A DNA stretch of 64,000 bases, from NCBI GenBank assembly GCA_902576605.1, contig CACGVI010000002.1, positions 7,422 through 71,421 on the forward strand, read 5' to 3'. Shown here in pieces: positions 2,217 through 63,098 of the stretch. Numbering within the stretch: position 1 is the stretch's first letter; the number at the start of each line of letters is the position of its first letter. This DNA comes from an uncultured Candidatus Actinomarina sp. (GTDB taxonomy: Bacteria > Actinomycetota > Acidimicrobiia > Actinomarinales > Actinomarinaceae). A model generated the notes under the pieces. That model worked only from the letters and a program-made list of their open reading frames with translations. It had not been told where the DNA came from and ran no database searches. Made by a program: the position numbers and the translations under genes.

Positions 2217-3620
2217 TTATTTTAAAGGTTCAAGTCTAGCTGTAAAGTGTCTTAGTAATTTTGGTTGCTCAAGGATCTTATATCCTTTTAACTTATCTTT
2301 TTTCTCAGCTAACTTTTCTAATACTTCAGCAACATAATCAAAATGACTTTGTGTGTATGTCCTTCTTGGAGCTGCAAGTCGAACAAGTTCATGTGTTGCC
2401 GGTGTATCGGGTTCCCCATTTTCATTTGCAACACCAAAGGCAAGCGTTCCCAATTCGACAGCTCTCACGCCACCAATTAAGTAGATTTCACAGGCAACCG
2501 AGTGCCCAGGGTATTCATGAGGTGGAATGTCTGGTAAAAAAGTTTTTGCATCAATATACAACGCATGACCACCTGCAGGTTGAACAACAGGTATATCATA
2601 ACTCAATGCTTTTTCAGCTAAATAGGAAATTGATCTCGCACGATATTCTAAGTAGTTCTTATCAGTTATCTCTTTAAGACCTTGTGCTAAAGCATCTAAA
2701 TCTCTACCTGCTAATCCTCCATATGTCGGAAACCCCTCAGTAAGAATCAGTAAATTTCTTGCAGCTTCAGCCAAAGAATCATCATTTAACGCAAGAACTC
2801 CACCAATATTGCCGAATCCGTCTTTTTTCAAACTAATTGTGCAACCATCAGCAAGTCGGAAAGCTTCTTTTGCTATTTCTCTTATCTCAACATCTTTATA
2901 CTCTTCTTCTCGTTGTGAGACAAACCAAGCATTTTCAGCAAATCTACATGCATCTAATAAAAACATCTTATTATATTTTGTACAAAGCTCTTTAACTTTT
3001 TTTAAGTTATCCATTGAGACAGGTTGGCCACCACCTGTATTATTTGTAATTGTCATCAGTACAAATGGAATTTTGTTACTTTCCGGTCCTTTTAAAAGTT
3101 CTTCTAATTTCTTTAAATCAACATTCCCTTTAAAGGGTGCGGGAGATAAAAGGTCTAAGCCCTCCTCACAAAGAAGATCTATAGGATTTGACTGTGCAAA
3201 TTCAAAGTTCGCTCTTGTAGTATCAAAGTGGCTATTGCTTGGAATGATGTCGCCTTCCTTAACACTAATTGTTGCAAGAATTTTTTCACTTGCTCTACCT
3301 TGATGCGTTGGAATAATGTGTTTGTACCCAGTAAGATCAGAAAGCACTTCATGAAATCTCTGCCATGAATGCGACCCTGCATAAGATTCATCTCCACGCA
3401 TTATTGCTGCCCACTGCTCTGATGACATCGACCCAGTACCCGAATCAGTGAGTAAGTCTATGGTTACCTCCTGAGACTTTAACCCAAAAACATTCCAATG
3501 TTCTCTCTCAAGGAATTCTCTTCTCTCCTGTTCAGTTGTAATAGGTAGAGATTCAACAGATTTTATCTTAAAAGGCTCAATGATTGTTTTAAACTCCATA
3601 CCCAAATTGTAACTAATCAT
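2217..3620 (-). CDS. tryptophanase / tyrosine phenol-lyase family PLP-dependent beta-eliminating lyase
   Basis: 467 aa ORF. N-terminus MEFKTIIEPFKIKSVE, the PLP-lysine region SLKKDGFGNIGG and overall length fit the Tnase/TPL family. The real start is probably the second Met at 3599. Confidence 0.8.
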   Translation of the reverse strand: MISYNLGMEFKTIIEPFKIKSVESLPITTEQERREFLEREHWNVFGLKSQEVTIDLLTDSGTGSMSSEQWAAIMRGDESYAGSHSWQRFHEVLSDLTGYKHIIPTHQGRASEKILATISVKEGDIIPSNSHFDTTRANFEFAQSNPIDLLCEEGLDLLSPAPFKGNVDLKKLEELLKGPESNKIPFVLMTITNNTGGGQPVSMDNLKKVKELCTKYNKMFLLDACRFAENAWFVSQREEEYKDVEIREIAKEAFRLADGCTISLKKDGFGNIGGVLALNDDSLAEAARNLLILTEGFPTYGGLAGRDLDALAQGLKEITDKNYLEYRARSISYLAEKALSYDIPVVQPAGGHALYIDAKTFLPDIPPHEYPGHSVACEIYLIGGVRAVELGTLAFGVANENGEPDTPATHELVRLAAPRRTYTQSHFDYVAEVLEKLAEKKDKLKGYKILEQPKLLRHFTARLEPLK

Positions 3621-9414: not shown

Positions 9415-10060
9415 ATACTTCTTTTATACACTCTTTTCCAAGTTCAAAAAGTTGATCGAGATGTTCTTTTGGAAATGGCTTTCCTTCAGCAGTGCCCTGT
9501 ATCTCTAGTATTTCAAATTTTTCATCAAGTACTAAATTGAGATCAACGTCTGCATTGGAGTCTTTTTCATAATCAAGATCTGCTACCAATTCGTTAGCAA
9601 CAATCCCAACTGAAATGGCACCGACTTTACTTGTAAGTGGATTTTGATTTAATTTATTTTCCTGGATCATTTTTTTAAATGTATCATTCAAAGCTATCCA
9701 AGCACCATTAATAGAAGCGGTTCTTGTACCACCATCAGCTTCTAAAACATCGCAATCTACTGTAAAGGAGTACCCGTTTATAATTCCTAAATTACAAACA
9801 GCTCTTAAAGATCTTCCAATTAATCTTGAAATTTCTTTAGCCCTACCTGACTCATAAGATTTTCTTGATATTCTATTACCTGATGACCCAGGTAACATGT
9901 TGTACTCTGCAGTTACCCAGCCCTTATCAGAATTTAGCAACCAGTCTGGAAGTCTATTTGAGACAGATACTGTAACTAATACCTTTGTATTGCCTGATTC
10001 GTATAAAACTGAGTTTTCAGCAGAATTAATAAAATTTTTGGTTACTTTTATTGGTCTCAT
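9398..10060 (-). CDS. rph: ribonuclease PH
   Basis: 220 aa with DCDVLEADGGTRTASINGAWIAL. The rph-rdgB pairing is typical. Confidence 0.9.
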   Translation of the reverse strand: MRPIKVTKNFINSAENSVLYESGNTKVLVTVSVSNRLPDWLLNSDKGWVTAEYNMLPGSSGNRISRKSYESGRAKEISRLIGRSLRAVCNLGIINGYSFTVDCDVLEADGGTRTASINGAWIALNDTFKKMIQENKLNQNPLTSKVGAISVGIVANELVADLDYEKDSNADVDLNLVLDEKFEILEIQGTAEGKPFPKEHLDQLFELGKECIKEVFEIQK

Positions 10061-32332: not shown

Positions 32333-33550
32333 ATGAGATGTATGAATGATGAAAATTTTTCTCAACAACAACTTTTTGAACAGGAAAAATATATTTCTGA
32401 TTTAATTGAAAAAAAATCTGACAAAAAGAAAAGTTCTATAAATATTATTTTTGGAGCGTCGTTAATTTCAAGTGGAATAGTTTTATCATTTTTATTTCTG
32501 TTTGGATTGTTCGATGAAGAAGAGATTGTAATTCCTGAACCTGTAACGATAACTCAAACTGTTACTGAAAAAGAATTAGTTATGCCAAGAGTTGACTCTA
32601 CAGAAATAGTTTCGATTGCTGAATTAGCTACAAAAACTATTGTTCAGGTTCAAGTAGGAGACATATCAGAAGATGGAGAATTTCTTCCAAGTGGTGGTGG
32701 CTCAGGAGTTGTTATTTCTTCCGATGGTCTAATAATGACTAATCACCATGTTATTGATAACTCAGTCCAAGTAAGGGTCGTCTTTGAAGATGGTAGAATG
32801 TATGAAAGTAAAATTGTTGGATCTGATAGGCTCACAGACATTGGATTACTTAAAATCTCTGCATCAAATTTAGTTCCTATATCAATCGGAAATAGTGAGT
32901 CTCTTAAGGTTGGGGATTTAGCAGTTGCTATTGGTCACCCATTAACGTTAGGTGCAGCACCTACTGTAACAACTGGGGTTGTTTCAGCATTGGAAAGAAG
33001 GCTAGACGTTGGTAGCGAAGCTATGGATTCAGGAGTTACTTTGTTTGGCTTGATTCAGACTGATGCACCAATAACAAGAGGGTCGAGTGGAGGTGCATTA
33101 ATTAACAATAATGGAGAATTAATTGGTATTACTACTGCTATAGCTACTGCAGATGTTGGAGCAGAAGGATTAGGATTTGCCGTTCCAGTAAATTTAGCTT
33201 TGGGTATAGCTGATGACTTACTTAAAGAAGGGCGTATTTTACATGCTTTTCTTGGAATTTTAGGTGCACAACATTTTGATACAGCAGATGATGGAGCAAG
33301 AGTATTCTCCGGAGTAATGATACAAGAACTGTATGGTCCAGGAAATGAAGTTTTTGCAATTGGAAAAGCTGGTGCATCAGCTGGCGATATAATTAAAAAA
33401 ATTAATGGTATTAATGTAAAGACGTTAGACGGCTTGATAACAGTGTTAAGACAAAAAAGAGCGGGTGATACTGTAGAGATAGAAATACTAAGAAACTCTC
33501 AAACAATAACACTTGTTTTTGAGTTGGATCTTCGACCTTCAGATGTCTGA
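32333..33550 (+). CDS. HtrA/DegP-family trypsin-like serine protease with C-terminal PDZ domain
   Basis: 405 aa with a TM anchor, TNHHVI, DIGLLKI and TRGSSGGAL (catalytic triad context), plus a PDZ tail. Confidence 0.85.
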   Translation: MRCMNDENFSQQQLFEQEKYISDLIEKKSDKKKSSINIIFGASLISSGIVLSFLFLFGLFDEEEIVIPEPVTITQTVTEKELVMPRVDSTEIVSIAELATKTIVQVQVGDISEDGEFLPSGGGSGVVISSDGLIMTNHHVIDNSVQVRVVFEDGRMYESKIVGSDRLTDIGLLKISASNLVPISIGNSESLKVGDLAVAIGHPLTLGAAPTVTTGVVSALERRLDVGSEAMDSGVTLFGLIQTDAPITRGSSGGALINNNGELIGITTAIATADVGAEGLGFAVPVNLALGIADDLLKEGRILHAFLGILGAQHFDTADDGARVFSGVMIQELYGPGNEVFAIGKAGASAGDIIKKINGINVKTLDGLITVLRQKRAGDTVEIEILRNSQTITLVFELDLRPSDV

Positions 33551-50408: not shown

Positions 50409-50744
50409 ATGGAAAGTGATAAATCAACTAATTTTTTTGAATTAGATATTCGTGTCGGAAAAATAATTAATGCAGAAATTTTCGAAGAAGCTAAAAAACC
50501 AGCTTACAAACTGACGATTGATTTTGGTGATTTAATCGGAACTAAAAAGACCAGTGCACAGATAACAAACTATAAATTAGATGAACTTCAAGAAAAGCCT
50601 TGTATAGCAGTTATAAATCTTGGAAATAAACAAATAGGACCATTTATGAGTGAGTGCTTAGTTTTAGGATCAATTTCTGAAAATGGAGATGTACTATTAC
50701 TTCAGCCATCCGGCAAAGCAGAGCTTGGAGACAAGGTTTCCTAA
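50409..50744 (+). CDS. CsaA/EMAP-type tRNA-binding domain protein
   Basis: 111 aa with LDIRVGKIINAEIFEEAKKPAYKLTIDFG. Confidence 0.75.
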   Translation: MESDKSTNFFELDIRVGKIINAEIFEEAKKPAYKLTIDFGDLIGTKKTSAQITNYKLDELQEKPCIAVINLGNKQIGPFMSECLVLGSISENGDVLLLQPSGKAELGDKVS

Positions 50745-51214
50745 CCTATTTTATTTTCGAAATACTTAGGATAAAATGTACCAACTCTTCTTCCAAGTTT
50801 TTCACCTTCATTATTAATCAATACATATGTTGGAGTGTTGTTTAAGTTATATATATCAATAAACTCATGATCTTTTTGCTTACTTGCATTTATAGAAACA
50901 AAATAAACATCTGGATTTTTCTTTTTAAATTCATCAACTATGAATTTTGAAGCAGTGCAACCTAGTCAGTAGTCTGAGTAAAACTCAATTATTGAATATT
51001 TGTAATCTGAAATATTATAAGAGTCATCAACCATACTTCTATTTGATGTATAAAAAATAAGGAATCCAAATATACCTAAAACAAATAAACTAAGAAAATA
51101 TAGAACAGTTATTGGCTCATAAGCAACAAAAATGATAGCGAGTCCGATAACCCATCCTGTGGGAAGATAAAGCAAACTATACCTGTTTAATATCCTAAGA
51201 AACTTTTTTTTCAT
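50741..51214 (-). CDS. two-TM thioredoxin-fold protein with in-frame TGA at the first active-site Cys (candidate UxxC selenoprotein, otherwise a very recent pseudogene)
   Basis: The track ORF 50966..51316 stops at TGA 50968..50966. The same frame continues for 74 more codons to TAG 50743..50741. The joined sequence is ...YSIIEFYSDY-[TGA]-LGCTASKFIVDEFKKKNPDVYFVSINASKQKDHEFIDIYNLNNTPTYVLINNEGEKLGRRVG... This is a complete Trx fold including the cis-Pro TPT. The likely start is MKKKF at 51214. Confidence 0.6.
50927..50947 (-). promoter_or_regulatory. SECIS-like stem-loop 18 nt downstream of the in-frame UGA
   Basis: Reverse strand: AAAUUCAU-AGUUG-AUGAAUUU. An 8 bp perfect stem with a 5-nt loop containing GU. 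Confidence 0.35.
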
Positions 51215-51248
51215 AATTTTGCCCGTCAAACATATAATATACTTGAAT

Positions 51249-51659
51249 ATGGATTTCGTTAATGAATTACGAAAAAGAGGTAAAAGAATAACTAATGCAA
51301 GAGAAGTTGTTTGCAAAATTCTTGAAACATCTGGGCATAAACATTTTACTGTTGAAGAGCTACATAAACTTTCATTAAAAAAAGATAAAAATATTGACTT
51401 AGCTACTGTTTACAGAACTCTAGAACTTTTAGAAAATATAAATCTAATTGAACATTCCCACCAGGTACACGGGTCAGGATTATATTTTGTAAAAGATGTA
51501 CATTCAAATATACATATTGTGTGTGAGTCATGTGGAGACATTTCAGATCTTGATATAAAAACATCTAAAAAAGTAAATGATCTATTAACTAGTAGAACAA
51601 ATTTTAGAGAGATAACAAATCACTTCGTATACTCAGGATATTGCAAAAAATGTAAATAA
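51249..51659 (+). CDS. Fur-family metalloregulator (Fur/Zur/PerR/Nur type not resolved)
   Basis: 136 aa from ATG 51249 with a winged-helix N-terminus (RITNAREVVCKILE), HSHQVHG, CESCGD and CKKCK. The track start 51219 is an upstream TTG. Confidence 0.75.
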   Translation: MDFVNELRKRGKRITNAREVVCKILETSGHKHFTVEELHKLSLKKDKNIDLATVYRTLELLENINLIEHSHQVHGSGLYFVKDVHSNIHIVCESCGDISDLDIKTSKKVNDLLTSRTNFREITNHFVYSGYCKKCK

Positions 51660-56131: not shown

Positions 56132-56558
56132 TAATATACTCCAGTGCTTCAATATATCCCTGCACACCTCTTCCAATAATTGATTTATTACAAATATCAG
56201 AAATTAAGTTTATTTTTCTAAATTCTTCTCTTTGATTTATATCTGAAATATGTACTTCAACTATTTCATTTTTTTGTGAGTAAGTCTGCAAAGCGTCTCT
56301 TATTGCAATACTTGTATGTGTGTACGCACCAGGGTTAATCACAATCCATGTTTTTTCATTATTAACTAGATTTTGTATATAATTTACAATTTCGCCTTCA
56401 ATATTTGATTGAAAAAAATCAGTTTTGATTTTTAACTTTTTAGCTTTAGAATCTACTAAATTTTTTAACTCATCAAAACTTGTGGAGCCGTATTGTGTAA
56501 TTTCTCTTATACCTAAAAAATTTAGATTGGGACCATTGATAATGTATATATTTTTAAT
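56121..56558 (-). CDS. aroQ: type II 3-dehydroquinate dehydratase, probable ATT start
   Basis: The track shows only the C-terminal 73 aa from an internal GTG. The frame is open back to TGA 56567..56565. It encodes IKNIYIINGPNLNFLGIREITQYG...FFQSNIEGEIVNYIQ...WIVINPGAYTHTSIAIRDAL, a full AroQ. There is no ATG/GTG/TTG upstream. GAGGTGAT (56571..56564) lies 5 nt before ATT 56558..56556. Confidence 0.8.
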   Translation of the reverse strand: MKNIYIINGPNLNFLGIREITQYGSTSFDELKNLVDSKAKKLKIKTDFFQSNIEGEIVNYIQNLVNNEKTWIVINPGAYTHTSIAIRDALQTYSQKNEIVEVHISDINQREEFRKINLISDICNKSIIGRGVQGYIEALEYINEQ

Positions 56559-57546
56559 TTTGAATCACCTCAATCAATTCATCAAAACTTATACTAATTA
56601 AATTAGGTTGTGATATATCTGACAATAAAACAATATCTATAGAATCAGATTTACTTTTTTTATCATCTTTTAAAATTTCTAATAAGTAATCGATACTGTT
56701 TTCAAATTCATATGATTTCTTAAAATCGAGTTTTTCTAGATACGATATATATAAATCAATAACCTCTTGTGGTAATCCAAAATATTCTTTAGATAGTTCG
56801 AGTTCATAAATCATTCCTATAGCAATTGCTTCACCGTGTGATAAATTGAACTTTGAATCTTGCTCAATTAAGTGGCCTATTGTGTGTCCGAAATTTAAAT
56901 ATTTCCTTTTTCCGATTTCTAAGTAATCTTCTTTTACGATATCTTCTTTGATTTGTATTCCTTTTTTGATTGTCTTAGTATCTATTTTGAAATTTTCTGT
57001 AGAAACCAATGTATTAAATATTTCTTTACTTCCAATTAGTCCGTGTTTTATAAGCTCAATTAATCCATCTTTATAATCATTGTCTTTCAATGTGTTGAGA
57101 AGTTCAAAACACACAACAACACTCTTTGGCAAATTAAAAGTTCCAATCTGGTTTTTTCCATAAACATTATTAAAACCGTTTTTCCCTCCATGAGATGCAT
57201 CAACCATCGCTAATAAAGTAGATGGAACTAATGTGAAGGCAACACCCCTTTTATATGTACTTGCAGCAAAAGAGCAGAGATCGAGCAAAACCCCACCTCC
57301 AATAATTACTACTTCATCTGATCTATTTAAATTTGATAAAAACATTATTTCCCAAATTTTTTCAATTGTTTCTAAATTTTTTGTTTCTTCAGAAACTTCA
57401 AGATATACATGGCTTGCCTTAAAGCTGCTATGTAATTGAAATTGCTCGAGAGCAGAATCCAAAATAATTAAGCTCTCATTTGGTAAATCTCCATTAATAT
57501 GTTTGATTAATTCTTCAGTGCTGTTTAAGTAAATATTTTTAGACAT
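56554..57546 (-). CDS. aroB: 3-dehydroquinate synthase
   Basis: IIGGGVLLDLCSFAAS and NFGHTIGHLIE...HGEAIAIGM. Confidence 0.9.
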   Translation of the reverse strand: MSKNIYLNSTEELIKHINGDLPNESLIILDSALEQFQLHSSFKASHVYLEVSEETKNLETIEKIWEIMFLSNLNRSDEVVIIGGGVLLDLCSFAASTYKRGVAFTLVPSTLLAMVDASHGGKNGFNNVYGKNQIGTFNLPKSVVVCFELLNTLKDNDYKDGLIELIKHGLIGSKEIFNTLVSTENFKIDTKTIKKGIQIKEDIVKEDYLEIGKRKYLNFGHTIGHLIEQDSKFNLSHGEAIAIGMIYELELSKEYFGLPQEVIDLYISYLEKLDFKKSYEFENSIDYLLEILKDDKKSKSDSIDIVLLSDISQPNLISISFDELIEVIQN

Positions 57547-58039
57547 TTTGAGTTTCCATTATTTCTAATACTTTACTTGTAGTATCTTTTACATTTTCAT
57601 TTGAAATTTTATATTCCATCATTTCGTATCTTTTTATTCTATTTTTATATCTACTTTCAAGAAATTCTCTTCCGTTACTGACTAATGGCCTGTTACTATT
57701 TTTAATTCTTTCCCAAAGGCTTTCAAAGTTAAGACTTAAATAAATGGTTTGGTGACTTTTAAGTAAATTCTCAAAAATATTGTCATTTTCTATCACACCA
57801 CCACCTAAAGAAATTAAATCAAATTTGTTTTGATTTGCAAAAAATTCTTTTTCTTCAATTTCCCTAAAAAAAGTCTCTCCTTTTTTTTCAAAAATATTTT
57901 CTATTTGACCATACTTATTCTCTATATTTTCATCCAAATCAATACACCTATATTTAGTTTGTCTTTTAATGTTGTTTAAAATCGTAGTTTTGCCAACACC
58001 CATAAACCCACATAAATAAAATGAATTATTCATTTTCAT
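57539..58039 (-). CDS. aroK: shikimate kinase
   Basis: 166 aa with the GFMGVGKTT P-loop and LGGG. Confidence 0.85.
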   Translation of the reverse strand: MKMNNSFYLCGFMGVGKTTILNNIKRQTKYRCIDLDENIENKYGQIENIFEKKGETFFREIEEKEFFANQNKFDLISLGGGVIENDNIFENLLKSHQTIYLSLNFESLWERIKNSNRPLVSNGREFLESRYKNRIKRYEMMEYKISNENVKDTTSKVLEIMETQNV

Positions 58040-59207
58040 ATTTCATAGACCATGTTTTATTTGCCAAATTAAAACTATCAAGAGTTATGTCTTTTATTTC
58101 ATTAATTCGTTTAAAAATTACTTCTTTATTATCTCCACCTGTATTTTCAATCAGAGAATTTAATAAATCTATAGATATTACACTTTCAAAAATAGGCACA
58201 GCTCTAGGTACAGCGCAGGTGTCAGACCTTTCATAGGTAGTTTCTGTCTCTTTCTGTGATGCCAGGTCTACGCTCTTTATAGGAGTCAAAGTTGTACTTA
58301 TAGGTTTTAAATAAGAAGTTATCATAATAGGCTCTCCAGTTGACATGCCTCCCTCAAATCCACCTAAATTATTTGTAATTCGTTCTACATTTTGTTCATT
58401 TAAAACTATTTGATCTTGTACAGCAGTACCAAAATCTTTAGATGCCTCTATACCACTGCCAACCTCAACTGCTTTAACGCTCTGTACAGACATCATTGAT
58501 GAGACAAGTTTTGCATCTAGCTTTCTATCAAAATGAACATAGCTACCACAACCTGCAGGAAAATTTTTTGCCACTAATGTTATAGAGCCACCTAATGTGT
58601 CTTTTTTCTTTCTTGCCTTTAAAATTTCATTTATCATTAATTCACTTGTTTCCTTATTTGGACAGGACACTTCAGATTCATCAACAAGTTTTTTAATTTG
58701 ACCTATGTCTTCTAAATTAATATTTTCTAACTTTTGCTCACCAATAGATGAAACATAACCAACAACTACAACTCCAAGTTGATTTAAAATTTGATGACAG
58801 ATAGCTCCAATTGCACATCTAATTGCAGTTTCACGAGCACTTGCTCTTTCGAGTGAAAGCCTTATATCATCATGTTGATACTTAAATGTCCCAACTAAGT
58901 CAGCATGTCCTGGACGAGGAACTACGAAAGGTTCTATTTCTTTATCCTTCCAATTTTTCCAGTCTTTATTGATTATCTTTATTGTTATCGGACCACCAGT
59001 TGATAAATTATTAATGACTCCAGAAGTAATTAAAACCTCATCTTTTTCAATATTCATTCTTCCGCCAGAACCTAAAGATTTTTGCCTTCTTGCAAGAAAC
59101 TCGTCAATATAATTTTTACTTACTTCAAAATTTGATGGAATGCCTTCTATAATTGCTGTTAATTCTGGTCCATGACTCTCACCAGCAGTCAAATATTTAA
59201 TTTTCAT
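58026..59207 (-). CDS. aroC: chorismate synthase
   Basis: LTAGESHGPELTAIIEGIP, GRMNIE-type GGRMN and RPGHADL. Confidence 0.95.
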   Translation of the reverse strand: MKIKYLTAGESHGPELTAIIEGIPSNFEVSKNYIDEFLARRQKSLGSGGRMNIEKDEVLITSGVINNLSTGGPITIKIINKDWKNWKDKEIEPFVVPRPGHADLVGTFKYQHDDIRLSLERASARETAIRCAIGAICHQILNQLGVVVVGYVSSIGEQKLENINLEDIGQIKKLVDESEVSCPNKETSELMINEILKARKKKDTLGGSITLVAKNFPAGCGSYVHFDRKLDAKLVSSMMSVQSVKAVEVGSGIEASKDFGTAVQDQIVLNEQNVERITNNLGGFEGGMSTGEPIMITSYLKPISTTLTPIKSVDLASQKETETTYERSDTCAVPRAVPIFESVISIDLLNSLIENTGGDNKEVIFKRINEIKDITLDSFNLANKTWSMKYENE

Positions 59208-60012
59208 GATCTATCCTTTCTAAAATTTCCTTGTAAACTTCGTTAAATTTTATACTTTGTCCTGTCCATATGTTAAACGATGAAATTGCTTGAGCAATTA
59301 ACATTATTGTTCCATCAATGGATGTTACATTTTTAGGAAGTTCACTTGTTAATTTCTTTGATACGCCGTATCCAAAGTTATAAAACAATTTTAATTTTGA
59401 GAAATTTGGAAGTCTTATTGGAAGTTTTTCGTTTTCATATGGTGGCATTCCCAGTGGCGTAGTATTTATAATGACCTCAATATTACTAGCAATCTCATTA
59501 AGATCTGAATAAGTTAAGTCTCCATCCTTTTTATTTCTAGACACTGTGTAAACATTATTATTTTCTGACAACGTATACTGTGCAGTTTGCGCACTTCCTC
59601 CACTGCCAAGAATAAGAACATGTTTGTTATTAATATCAAAATTTAAAAATTCAAAAGTTTGATTTATACCATCCACATCTGTGTTTGATAATGAAACAAT
59701 ATTGTCATCTACTTTTACGGTATTTACAGCTTTAATGTTATCAACTGCTAATGACCTCGAAACATTTTTTAAATCTTTAGATAAGTTATAAATGTTTTCT
59801 TTATGAGGTATTGTTATGTTATATCCATCAAAATTATTATTTAAACTTTCAAAGATATCTAAAGTGAAATTTTCAATTGGTAATTTTTTATAAGTAACAT
59901 CAACATTAAAAATCTCAGAGAGAGTTTGATGAATATTTGGAGAAAATGTCTTTATTAATGGCCAACCTATTATCCCTAATCTAATTGTCATAATTTGCTC
60001 CAATTTTTTCAA
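59197..60012 (-). CDS. aroE: shikimate 5-dehydrogenase
   Basis: LGIIGWPLIKTFSPNIH, NITIPHK, NTD and LGSGGSAQ. Confidence 0.85.
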   Translation of the reverse strand: MKKLEQIMTIRLGIIGWPLIKTFSPNIHQTLSEIFNVDVTYKKLPIENFTLDIFESLNNNFDGYNITIPHKENIYNLSKDLKNVSRSLAVDNIKAVNTVKVDDNIVSLSNTDVDGINQTFEFLNFDINNKHVLILGSGGSAQTAQYTLSENNNVYTVSRNKKDGDLTYSDLNEIASNIEVIINTTPLGMPPYENEKLPIRLPNFSKLKLFYNFGYGVSKKLTSELPKNVTSIDGTIMLIAQAISSFNIWTGQSIKFNEVYKEILERIDHEN

Positions 60013-61297
60013 GATCTGAAAAAAAACTAGGGTATGAATCTGAAATACAGTTTATGTTATCTGGTTTAATTCCGTCATTAATTGCTAGGTTTGCAATTAC
60101 ACCAGTCATAGCTATTCTGTGGTCCTCAAAAGTTTTAATTTGTCCTGATTTGAGTTTTTGAGGACCGTTAACTTTAAACCCATCAGGGTTAACCTCTATT
60201 TCTCCACCAAGAGTTTTAATAAATTTTTCCATAGATTCTATACGGTCTGATTCTTTTAGTCTCAACTCACCTGCACCACTTACTGTAGTTATTCCCTTTG
60301 CTTGAGTTGCCAAAAGGGTAAATATTGGAAATTCATCTACCATGTCAGATACGTCTTCGTTACTAACCTTGATAGCAGAGAGATTAGATTTTGAAACATG
60401 TATATCTCCTACTGATTCATTATTTTTGACTTCTAAATTTTCGATTGATATTTTTGCGTTCATTCTCTTTAATATCTTGAGGAAACCAATTCTTCTCTCA
60501 TTAAGTAAAACATTTTTGATGATTAATTTTTTACTTTTCATTAGCCCAAGTCCTATCAAAAAAGCTGCTGAAGAAGGATCTCCAGGAACAATATAATCCA
60601 TACTTCTAAGGCTTTGTACAGGCTCTATTGTTATAGAATTGCCAAGTCTTACGGTATTTACTCCCATTAAATTTAACATTCGTTCAGTGTGATCTCTTGT
60701 TGGCAACTCTTCAGTAACAGTCGTTGGAAATTCATCATGATATAGTGATGCAAGAAGAAATCCACTTTTAACTTGTGCACTTGGTTTATCTGAATGAATA
60801 CTTTCGAATTTATAATCTTTTGGTTCAAAATTAATTGGTAATTTACCATTGGAATCTTTTATATCAGCACCCTTTTCATTGAGCGGCTTGACTACTCTCT
60901 TCATTGGACGTTTGATTAATTGAGAACTACCTGTTAATTCAGTGCTGAAATTTTGTTTTGACAGTAGACCTATAAGAAGCCTTGCAGTTGTACCAGAATT
61001 TACTGCATCAAGTGAATTATTAGGTTGTTTTAAGCCACGTAACCCTACTCCGTGAATCTCAACTTCATTGTTGTTTGTTTCATTTATTTCTACACCTAAT
61101 TGTCTAAAAATATGTATCGTAGCTTTAGTATCTCCTGACAATAAAATATTTTTGATTCTTGAAACTCCAGTTGCTAAAGAGCAGAGAATTACTGCTCGAT
61201 GAGAAAGAGATTTGTCACCAATAATACTCAAAGAGCCTTGAATTTTCACTATGTGAGGTCTCTTTCTCCAAATTTGTCTGCTAAGGCTCTTCGCCAA
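59981..61297 (-). CDS. aroA: 3-phosphoshikimate 1-carboxyvinyltransferase (EPSP synthase)
   Basis: IIGDKSLSHR, NSGTTARLL, KESDR and DHRIAM. An alternative in-frame GTG start at 61249 overlaps the tyrA stop by 1 nt. Confidence 0.9.
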   Translation of the reverse strand: MAKSLSRQIWRKRPHIVKIQGSLSIIGDKSLSHRAVILCSLATGVSRIKNILLSGDTKATIHIFRQLGVEINETNNNEVEIHGVGLRGLKQPNNSLDAVNSGTTARLLIGLLSKQNFSTELTGSSQLIKRPMKRVVKPLNEKGADIKDSNGKLPINFEPKDYKFESIHSDKPSAQVKSGFLLASLYHDEFPTTVTEELPTRDHTERMLNLMGVNTVRLGNSITIEPVQSLRSMDYIVPGDPSSAAFLIGLGLMKSKKLIIKNVLLNERRIGFLKILKRMNAKISIENLEVKNNESVGDIHVSKSNLSAIKVSNEDVSDMVDEFPIFTLLATQAKGITTVSGAGELRLKESDRIESMEKFIKTLGGEIEVNPDGFKVNGPQKLKSGQIKTFEDHRIAMTGVIANLAINDGIKPDNINCISDSYPSFFSDLEKIGANYDN

Positions 61298-62085
61298 TCA
61301 ACAGTATCTGACAAATAATCTAACATAATTTTTTCGTCATTAATTTTTTGAATTTTTTCAAGTTCTGATATTAATTTATCAATTAAATCTTTGACATTGT
61401 CAACATTTGTTAAGTACATATCAGAAATCATATTTGGTGAAGTCCTAGATAGACGAGTAGCTCCATCAAAACCCCCGGAAGCTAAATTTATCAATTCGTT
61501 TAAATCTTGTTCTTTCATAGCAAGCGATACTAAGGCTGAACTTAGAATATGCGGCAAGTGACTTGTCAATGAAATTAACTCGTCGTGTTTAGATTGATCA
61601 ATCCATATCTCTTTAGATTCAATAGCTCGTACAAATTCTGAAACTAGTGCTTTGCTTTGTTCATCTGTTGACTTTGTTTCACATAGCAAAAATGGAGCAC
61701 CTTCATACATTTCAGGAGTCGGCACCCATGTACTATTATCAGCAACACCACATAATGGATGTCCACCTATTGAAGGAATAGTAGATGTATCCATTTTTTT
61801 ACATATAAGCTCTTTTGTACCTCCCAGGTCAACAATAGCTTTTGTTTTCAGAGATAGTGGTGAATCAAAATAGTTGATAATTTCATTTATAGGTGTAGCC
61901 AAAACGGTAAGATCATAATCTATTGATTCTTTATGATCCAGCGAAAGAGCACCGAGCTCTTTTGCACGCCCTACATTTTTTTTTGAAATATCAGATCCAC
62001 TTACTTTAATGCCACTATTAACCAACTTGATTCCCAAATTAGCTCCCATTAGACCAAGACCAATAATATGAACTTTTTTTAGCAT
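61249..62085 (-). CDS. tyrA: prephenate dehydrogenase
   Basis: VHIIGLGLMGANLG (NAD fold), GGHPLCG and SHLPHILS. Confidence 0.85.
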   Translation of the reverse strand: MLKKVHIIGLGLMGANLGIKLVNSGIKVSGSDISKKNVGRAKELGALSLDHKESIDYDLTVLATPINEIINYFDSPLSLKTKAIVDLGGTKELICKKMDTSTIPSIGGHPLCGVADNSTWVPTPEMYEGAPFLLCETKSTDEQSKALVSEFVRAIESKEIWIDQSKHDELISLTSHLPHILSSALVSLAMKEQDLNELINLASGGFDGATRLSRTSPNMISDMYLTNVDNVKDLIDKLISELEKIQKINDEKIMLDYLSDTVDWRRALADKFGERDLT

Positions 62086-63098
62086 TAAAGTGACCTTCCG
62101 ACCGCCTTTGCGACAATCGATGCTTTGCTTATCAAAGTTTCTAATTCGCTAGGTAGTAACGCTTGTGGACCATCACATAAAGCTTCTTCCGGCCTTGGGT
62201 GGATTTCAATTAATAACCCATCAGCCCCAGCAGCTATAGCTGCTAACGCAACTGGTTCAACTAAAGTATTATCACCTGTCGCATGACTAGGATCAGCAAT
62301 TATAGGTAAATGACTGTTCTGCTTCAAAAAAGGAATAGCATTTATATCAAATGTATTCCTTGTGGCTGTCTCATATGTTCTAATCCCTCTTTCACACAAC
62401 ATAACATTCTCATTTCCTCTAGACAAGATGTATTCACTTGCAAGTAATAACTCATCCAATGTTGCAGACATTCCTCGTTTTAACAAAACAGGAAGCTCTG
62501 ATTCACCAACAGCTTCGAGGAGTTTGAAATTCTGCATGTTTCTTGCACCAATTTGTAGAACATCTACATATTTTTCCATCATTGATAAATGTTGCGCATC
62601 CATTATTTCACTAAAGAGAGGTAATGAAGTTATTTCGGAGGCCTCCTTTAGCATTTTTAATCCATCTTCACCCAATCCCTGGAAACTATATGGAGAAGTT
62701 CTTGGCTTAAATGCACCACCTCTCAAACCATTTGATCCTGCATCCTTTGCAGCCATTGCAGTTTCAATTGTTTGTTCCTGTGTCTCCGCACTGTCTGGGC
62801 CAGCAATAATTGCGATTTCATCGCCACCAATGGTTAGATTTTGTATTTGAATAATGGAATTTTTCTTTTTGTAGTTTTTGCTCGCAAGTTTATATGGTTT
62901 TCCTACTGGAATAACTCTACTTACATTTGGTAAAAGCTTCATCACGGCTCGGTGATCATCATTCACTTTTCCACTAACTGCCACAACACTTCTTTCAACA
63001 CCGTTTATAACAAGTGGTTCATGTCCTTGCTGTATGGCTTTTTCTTTTACTTTCTCAATATCTTCATCAGAATGAGACTGCTTCATTACTACTATCAA
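62085..63098 (-). CDS. aroF: DAHP synthase, type I-beta with N-terminal ferredoxin-like regulatory domain
   Basis: TTG start giving MIVVMK. LRGGAFKPRTSPYSFQGLGEDGL, IGARNMQNF, LLKRG, CERGIRT and DPSH. The architecture resembles the Thermotoga-type enzyme. Confidence 0.9.
   Translation of the reverse strand: MIVVMKQSHSDEDIEKVKEKAIQQGHEPLVINGVERSVVAVSGKVNDDHRAVMKLLPNVSRVIPVGKPYKLASKNYKKKNSIIQIQNLTIGGDEIAIIAGPDSAETQEQTIETAMAAKDAGSNGLRGGAFKPRTSPYSFQGLGEDGLKMLKEASEITSLPLFSEIMDAQHLSMMEKYVDVLQIGARNMQNFKLLEAVGESELPVLLKRGMSATLDELLLASEYILSRGNENVMLCERGIRTYETATRNTFDINAIPFLKQNSHLPIIADPSHATGDNTLVEPVALAAIAAGADGLLIEIHPRPEEALCDGPQALLPSELETLISKASIVAKAVGRSL

Follow-up and report, generated by a model that had tools for sequence, protein, structure and literature searches.

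The gene described here lies on the minus strand at positions 50741..51214 of the window, by which we mean the whole 64-kb stretch of Candidatus Actinomarina DNA that was analysed; the window has a G+C content of approximately 32%. The gene has 157 codons, running from an ATG at 51214 to a TAG stop codon at 50743..50741, and it carries an in-frame TGA at codon 83 (50966..50968, minus strand) that is the proposed selenocysteine (Sec) codon, U83. A gene encoding a Fur-family protein (51249..51659, plus strand) diverges from it across 34 bp, and downstream a csaA-like gene for a protein with a tRNA-binding domain converges on it, overlapping its stop codon by 4 nt. The list of open reading frames in the window gave a product of 116 amino acids in this place (50966..51316, minus strand), with a TTG start and with termination at the TGA (50968..50966). 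The first-pass annotation took over that reading frame and pointed out that the same frame stays open beyond the TGA for 74 further codons, up to the TAG at 50743..50741. The end of the listed frame and the open stretch beyond it were confirmed on the sequence, but the TTG start at 51316 was not. Conservation among orthologues begins only at the motif MKKKFL, and in several of them a stop codon is found immediately upstream of it, so that translation is best started at the conserved ATG at 51214, giving 157 codons. The MKKKFL start, the length of 157 amino acids and the position of the TAG stop are all conserved in orthologues. The 157-amino-acid predicted product begins MKKKFLRILNRYS.

The two ends of this protein are of different kinds. 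Residues 1-57 (51044..51214, minus strand) are predicted from an AlphaFold2 model and from homologues to form a membrane anchor, in which a K/R-rich tail with the conserved motif LNRYS precedes hydrophobic helices at residues 13-32 and 35-57. Residues 70-157 (50744..51007, minus strand) form a thioredoxin-fold domain. The AlphaFold2 model, built from 35 family members, has a pLDDT of 89.9 and places helices at residues 2-11, 13-32 and 35-57, while the modelled domain is a minimal thioredoxin fold in the order beta-alpha-beta-alpha-beta-beta-alpha. The best Foldseek matches to the model are thioredoxins (probability 1.0, target TM-score 0.74), and StoA was matched too. At the level of sequence the product matches Pfam families PF00085 and PF13098, scoring 24.4 bits against the PF00085 cut-off of 23.5 when C is written for Sec, and it matches thioredoxins in the PDB at E=5e-5. 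The HMMER alignment to these solved thioredoxins sets FYSDY-[TGA]-LGC against FYADW-C-GPC and so bears out the original observation that the TGA falls on the first Cys of a thioredoxin CxxC motif. The active-site motif U-L-G-C (UxxC; residues 83-86; 50957..50968, minus strand) caps the N-terminus of a helix at residues 84-99. The proline of the cis-Pro loop, Pro128 in the block TPTY (50831..50833, minus strand), precedes a strand at residues 129-134 in the model, and both it and C86 are invariant across the family alignment; a single metagenome-assembled genome has UxxF in place of UxxC. The score of the product against the TrxA equivalog model TIGR01068 was 28.3 bits, far below the cut-off of 96.8, and the protein is therefore thioredoxin-like rather than TrxA. 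Weak HMM matches to ResA and DsbD were also obtained. The curated NCBIfam selenoprotein families, including GOS_C (NF045500), gave no match to the window protein (E<=1), and the 35 family members matched none of the NCBIfam selenoprotein models (E<=1e-3) apart from weak domain matches to TsoB.

In the protein databases the catalytic residue is hidden. A search returned 42 homologues with 46-95% identity, which read 'W' wherever their sequence extends over the site; further entries are N-terminal stubs of 82 amino acids. The copies returned are thus all either truncated at 82 residues or provided with a tryptophan at the catalytic site, and automated annotation conceals both the family and its chemistry. 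We considered whether the tryptophan might be real, encoded by TGG, with the window as a nonsense mutant, and rejected this because the DNA behind the 'W' reads TGA in all nine of the metagenome contigs that were fetched. The 'W' arises because gene callers chose genetic code 4 on short, A+T-rich contigs.

The gene was placed in a wider family by searching 1.8 billion representative proteins with a profile. The distant homologues are approximately 160 amino acids in length and have the same build throughout: a short N-terminus that carries an (L/I/V)N(Q/H/R)YS motif is followed by two hydrophobic helices and then by a thioredoxin domain. In 30 of these that were aligned, the column that corresponds to the TGA holds a Cys, in a true CxxC motif, in 21 cases and 'W' in the remaining nine; three of the nine were checked in DNA and all three have TGA. 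The CxxC homologues include a protein from Chloroflexota, and others carry the label 'thiol-disulfide isomerase/thioredoxin'. The Cys forms are contiguous single proteins, and the six Cys-form loci examined (L117 and L119-L123) have TGC or TGT in the DNA. A scan of metagenomes yielded 44 loci with G+C contents of 27-70%, among them 43 with TGA and one with TGT, in a sample biased towards Sec forms by its four seeds, all distant Sec forms. Despite this bias in the seeds, the scan reveals that the TGA form occurs widely, high-G+C bacteria included. We know of no reassignment of TGA in high-G+C bacteria.

Just beyond the TGA there is a hairpin (50927..50947, minus strand) with the sequence AAAUUCAU-AGUUG-AUGAAUUU, in which the 5' arm occupies 50947..50940, the loop 50939..50935 and the 3' arm 50934..50927. 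The distance from the TGA is 18 nt to the stem and 26 nt to the loop. The perfect 8-bp stem with GU in its loop that had been described from the sequence is present as reported, and its geometry, then called compatible with a bacterial SECIS element, fits the published bSECIS model, which calls for a stem of 4-16 bp, an apical loop of 3-9 nt with a G in its first two positions and a distance of 16-37 nt from UGA to loop (PMC13188914); here the stem is 7-8 bp, the loop AGUUG and the spacing 26 nt. All TGA forms share a hairpin in the identical register (UGA, 18 nt, stem, 5-nt loop), and the letters of the stem differ from lineage to lineage: UUCAU/AUGAA and CUCAU/AUGAG in Actinomarina, and CCUGU/ACAGG, CCUAU/AUAGG, CCCGU/ACGGG, CCCAU/AUGGG and CCGAU/AUCGG in others.

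Pairs were counted on a gapless alignment of 51 distinct, diverse sequences. Standard pairs fill 86.8% of the cells, a figure that drops to 15-51% if the 3' arm is displaced by 1-3 columns, and five of the eight stem pairs show compensatory changes on both sides, with the inner five pairs 96-100% paired. The covariation score of 0.514 compares with 0.27 in shuffles and was reached by none of 500 of them. The outermost pair is unsupported (13/51) and the other seven are well supported; the loop dinucleotide GU is invariant in the 51 sequences. The question of whether the hairpin covaries, left by the first-pass annotation to a comparison of orthologues, is thereby answered: it does so, in a fixed register. 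The imprint of the stem can also be seen in codon usage. Among 54 distinct Actinomarina sequences, codons +8 to +11 (F/L, I, V, D/N) are without any variation in their third position; at nearby residues that are equally invariant the entropy of the third position is 0.9-1.6 bits. The paired codons in the Sec forms encode F...E or P...R/G (UUC/GAA, CCU/AGG, CCC/GGG), the constraint of the stem showing through into the protein, and the Cys forms vary at the second paired codon. Pairing is less complete in the Cys-form loci: together they form 18 of the 30 possible inner pairs, where each pair in the Sec forms reaches 96-100%, and five of the six loci pair poorly there, with 1-4 of the 5 inner pairs intact. 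The exception is L119, which still has the hairpin and appears to have changed recently from Sec to Cys.

Folding energy was dropped as a source of evidence for a SECIS element. The 76-nt region folds at -7.8 kcal/mol with an MFE z-score of +0.76 against shuffles, so it has no extra stability; the Actinomarina stem is rich in A and U and is made almost wholly of A-U pairs, and the corresponding region in G+C-richer homologues folds at -9 to -28 kcal/mol. It is conservation and covariation, and not energy, that raise the hairpin above chance, and by such comparative criteria its identity as a SECIS element is strongly supported.

These observations make it very probable that the gene encodes a 157-residue, membrane-tethered thiol-disulfide oxidoreductase of the thioredoxin fold that has selenocysteine as its nucleophile, in the motif U83-L-G-C86. 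The essentials of the first reading, in which Sec is inserted in a UxxC motif under the direction of a SECIS-like hairpin and in the absence of any change to the genetic code, are thus supported by conservation, by the Cys homologues and by covariation. In such a scheme, SelB carrying Sec-tRNA(Sec) would bind the hairpin 18 nt past the UGA (7-8 bp stem, loop AGUUG) and would deliver Sec where the UGA would otherwise terminate translation. In the manner of a CxxC thioredoxin, the product would then act on membrane-located substrates, a selenolate serving as nucleophile and Cys86 as resolving residue; this biochemical role we infer from the fold and the motif.

The machinery that such a scheme requires is not encoded close to the gene. 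No tRNA-Sec was detected in the 64-kb window or in the flanks of about 20 kb at 56 related loci, no SelA, SelB or SelD was found among window ORFs of suitable size, and a tblastn search of the window and the fetched flanks with an approximate E. coli SelD sequence as query produced no match. An Rfam scan of the window, conducted with a collection that has no usable model of a bacterial SECIS element, detected tRNA-Met only. The first-pass annotation knew of no description of selenocysteine use in low-GC marine actinobacteria, and this has been overtaken by an unreviewed preprint, 'Actinomarina, resolved' (Nielsen & Lui, April 2026, bioRxiv 10.64898/2026.04.03.716425). Its authors report selA, selC and selD together with a divergent selB in 84 of 84 complete Actinomarina genomes, no selenouridine synthase, and approximately five predicted selenoproteins per genome that standard gene callers truncate at UGA (10.64898/2026.04.03.716425). 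The reported universal presence of these genes means that an Actinomarina genome without Sec machinery is contradicted by the literature. The deep-Sep predictions of that work comprise 69 'families', and the selenoproteins that it names are a K07090 protein, SelD and a 78-amino-acid protein of unknown function; nowhere does it speak of a thioredoxin-like selenoprotein, the supplement has no list of selenoprotein sequences, and Rfam SECIS searches found nothing in Actinomarina (10.64898/2026.04.03.716425). Use of Sec in this lineage was reported only months before our analysis, and the gene itself is almost certainly a conserved selenoprotein.

Readthrough of the UGA could in principle proceed without selenium, a near-cognate or suppressor tRNA inserting Trp or Cys and the hairpin serving as a stimulator only. 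The absence of Sec machinery from the window and from the flanks that were searched is in keeping with this, as is the W that public gene callers give at the codon. That W is an artefact of calling with code 4, however, and the CxxC chemistry retained by the Cys homologues would not survive a Trp in the position of the nucleophile. The hairpin keeps the defining features of a bSECIS element across G+C contents of 27-70%, and the complete Actinomarina genomes are all reported to encode Sec machinery (10.64898/2026.04.03.716425), leaving selenium-free readthrough improbable.

It is more improbable still that the TGA is a genuine stop, such that the gene makes an 82-residue membrane peptide and the DNA beyond it is either a remnant in decay or a fragment translated from a start of its own. 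Gene calling with table 11 does end there, and fragments of 82 amino acids are present in the databases. We scanned one genome per species and found 56 loci, nearly all of them in single-cell or metagenome-assembled genomes of Candidatus Actinomarina/Actinomarinales, the closest having 99-100% identity over the C-terminal half. TGA is at codon 83 in all 56 of these independent genomes, with the frame open on both sides and the stop conserved, and it recurs in many metagenome assemblies. The relatives thus have TGA where the first-pass annotation had asked about TGA or TGT/TGC. Pairwise dN/dS is 0.06-0.5 both for codons 1-82 and for codons 84-157, with synonymous sites near saturation; a ratio below 1 after the TGA indicates that the downstream half is translated and under selection, and together with the conserved stop it shows that this half has not decayed. 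The downstream half also completes a high-confidence thioredoxin fold, and the homologues with Cys are contiguous single proteins. The conservation of the TGA in combination with purifying selection rules out an assembly error, a recent nonsense mutation and a pseudogene. We conclude that the TGA is a conserved part of the coding sequence, aligned with Cys in the CxxC homologues, as is expected of a Sec codon.

The use of TGA elsewhere in the window was as the first-pass annotation had stated. It ends the ORFs at 33550 and 35933, and it terminates the genes for CbiQ, an ECF-ATPase and a lipase, all three verified by family models, so the code is not reassigned and the earlier judgement that global reassignment was unlikely is borne out. 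An altered code (table 4 or 25) with TGA as a sense codon throughout the genome has in its favour the low G+C content of approximately 32% and the choice of code 4 by metagenomic callers for many short contigs, but it can scarcely be entertained when 12 of the 60 ORFs that reach or exceed 150 amino acids in the unfiltered six-frame list of the window close with TGA, these three genes included, when the only in-frame TGA between two coding-looking segments in the whole window is the one in this gene, and when the same TGA is present in homologues from bacteria of 57-70% G+C. A simple scan of the window for a bSECIS together with an open frame revealed no other selenoprotein gene.

Thioredoxin-like selenoproteins of the UxxC type were already known, as the first-pass annotation stated for other bacteria, and they have been described from ocean metagenomes since 2005-2008 (PMC1088965, PMC2398784). 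UxxC thioredoxin, Trx-like and thiol-disulfide-isomerase-like selenoproteins were catalogued from the Sargasso Sea and GOS data, and 'Trx-like 1' ranked third in abundance among the GOS selenoprotein families (PMC1088965, PMC2398784). The marine-metagenome groups of this type are 'Thioredoxin', 'Trx-like 1' (COG0526), 'Trx-like 3' and 'thiol:disulfide interchange protein' (PF13098) (PMC1088965, PMC2398784, PMC13188914). Our family resembles them in having a thioredoxin fold with Sec as the first residue of UxxC, Cys homologues and a SECIS element just downstream, in being abundant in surface-ocean samples and in matching the same PF00085/PF13098 models; it differs in that those groups are loosely defined, by domain match. 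The family studied here probably lies inside one of them; the two-helix LNxYS anchor and the Actinomarina host are undescribed in these papers (PMC1088965, PMC2398784, PMC13188914). The selenoproteome of Nielsen & Lui concerns the same genus and includes its universal Sec machinery, but it gives no SECIS structure and no analysis of Sec and Cys forms in a family. In the case of the E. coli fdhF SECIS element and the bSECISearch model, the likeness is in a hairpin within the coding sequence, right after the UGA, with G(U) opening a small loop; the fdhF element has a bulged U, in contrast to the short Actinomarina stem (7-8 bp), which has none. The extracytoplasmic proteins ResA, StoA, TlpA and DsbE also have a membrane-tethered CxxC domain with a thioredoxin fold, but they have one N-terminal anchor and inserts of the TlpA/ResA class, in contrast to the two-helix hairpin anchor and minimal thioredoxin fold found here.

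A broader reading, which we offer tentatively and think less likely than not to hold in full, is that these proteins make up a family that has never been named, spanning 27-70% G+C, in which thioredoxins sit on a two-helix anchor (LNxYS, U/CxxC) and Sec forms are common, at least in a biased sample. The Actinomarina gene would be its representative, and a SECIS element in a fixed register would dictate part of the protein sequence. The family alignment offers a clean bacterial SECIS supported by covariation and could seed a covariance model of the kind that Rfam lacks.

Members of the genus Actinomarina are among the most abundant and the smallest free-living bacteria in the ocean, with a genome of approximately 1.1 Mb. 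The proteins that justify keeping a Sec pathway in such a genome bear on the demand for trace selenium in the surface ocean. The presence of the gene in every Actinomarinales genome examined makes it a core selenoprotein of the lineage.

The first-pass annotation considered that the divergent Fur-family regulator would suit a redox or peroxide role; the divergent arrangement is correct, at 34 bp, but the functional link is unsupported. Models of Fur, PerR and Irr give the regulator equal scores, all far below the cut-offs, and it is followed on the same strand by cbiQ and then an ECF ATPase gene. Its place at the head of a cbiQ/ECF-ATPase operon makes control of metal uptake its more likely task, and its position beside the selenoprotein gene may be incidental. 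The Actinomarina contigs examined share the gene order Fur, Trx-like, CsaA, FMN-reductase-like, of which no example was found beyond the genus. Elsewhere the gene adjoins crcB (the low-G+C marine forms L081, L085 and L090) or a gene for a multi-pass membrane protein (L084 and L091-L093). A gene for a methyltransferase of the TPMT/TehB type overlaps the stop codon in three Cys forms, as identified by Pfam, and in two Sec forms, as identified by eye. This apparent translational coupling hints at a role in the handling of selenium, tellurium or thiol compounds.

The charges around the anchor differ within the family. Most members have a K/R-rich loop between the two helices, and the Actinomarina clade has a K/R-rich N-terminal tail and an uncharged loop. 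The charge bias predicts that the domain is outside the cell in most of the family and inside the cell in the Actinomarina clade. The inverted bias in Actinomarina suggests that its catalytic domain may face the opposite side of the membrane from that of the rest of the family.

The selenoprotein gene of Candidatus Actinomarina (window 50741..51214, minus strand) is packed very tightly between its neighbours. Its stop codon overlaps a convergent csaA-like gene by 4 nt (50741..50744) and only 34 bp (51215..51248) separate its start from that of a divergent Fur-family gene; the promoters must therefore lie within coding sequence. Among the loci examined from other lineages, five have an open reading frame that touches or overlaps the end of the thioredoxin-like gene at its stop codon. 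Where that gene is a Cys form (L119, 651-1139; L122, 1001-1516; L123, 1001-1480), the product of the adjoining frame matches the TPMT/TehB methyltransferase Pfam families, and in the Sec-form loci L109 and L110 it was recognised, by eye only, as a SAM-dependent methyltransferase. A methyltransferase-type frame at this stop codon is absent in Actinomarina. In marine Sec-form homologues of low GC (29-39%) from beyond Actinomarina, crcB stands immediately upstream of the gene in L081, L085, L086 and L090, crcB being a Pfam match in the corresponding contigs; in L084 and L091-L093 that place is taken by a gene for a putative multi-pass membrane protein of approximately 207 aa.

The Cys-form homologue L119 (JGI Ga0618265_0042499) has TGC at the Sec position and still keeps the hairpin at the spacing of the SECIS register; its five inner pairs all form. 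The retention of this hairpin suggests a recent replacement of Sec by Cys. The second active-site residue of the pair varies in a single Actinomarina MAG (L063; JBEROH010000022.1, around position 10001), which reads U-L-G-F in place of U-L-G-C, the codon for the resolving Cys having changed from TGT to TTT. Either the sequence is in error at this codon, or the MAG carries a natural variant without the resolving Cys.

The charge bias of the N-terminal 70 residues is inverted within the family, as seen in the protein alignment A4; in the window the membrane anchor is encoded by 51044..51214. In most members of A4 the N-terminal tail is uncharged and the loop between the two membrane helices is rich in K/R; this predicts that the thioredoxin domain lies outside the cell. 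The tail is K/R-rich and the loop uncharged in the Actinomarina clade and in the marine Cys form P0054, for which the domain is predicted to be inside. The inverted bias may represent a flip of topology within the family.

In public collections the Sec position is given as 'W', or the protein is cut to a stub of approximately 82 aa (protein homologues P0001-P0041; loci L001-L009 and L066-L074). The 'W' arises because gene callers picked genetic code 4 for short AT-rich contigs. One such stub, P0037, carries the label 'c-di-AMP phosphodiesterase-like protein'. L045 (JAKVCV010000044.1, a 4.7-kb contig) encodes exactly the same protein as L043 and L044, which are Actinomarina orthologues, and its presence in a MAG labelled Saprospiraceae is probably due to binning contamination.

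Elsewhere in the window, the minus strand carries at 2217..3620 a tryptophanase-family gene that scores 645 bits against the NF009709 subfamily. Several genes of the shikimate pathway (aroB, aroA and DAHP synthase) follow one another on the same strand at 56554..63098. Tryptophan biosynthesis is reported to be universally absent in Actinomarina (bioRxiv 10.64898/2026.04.03.716425).
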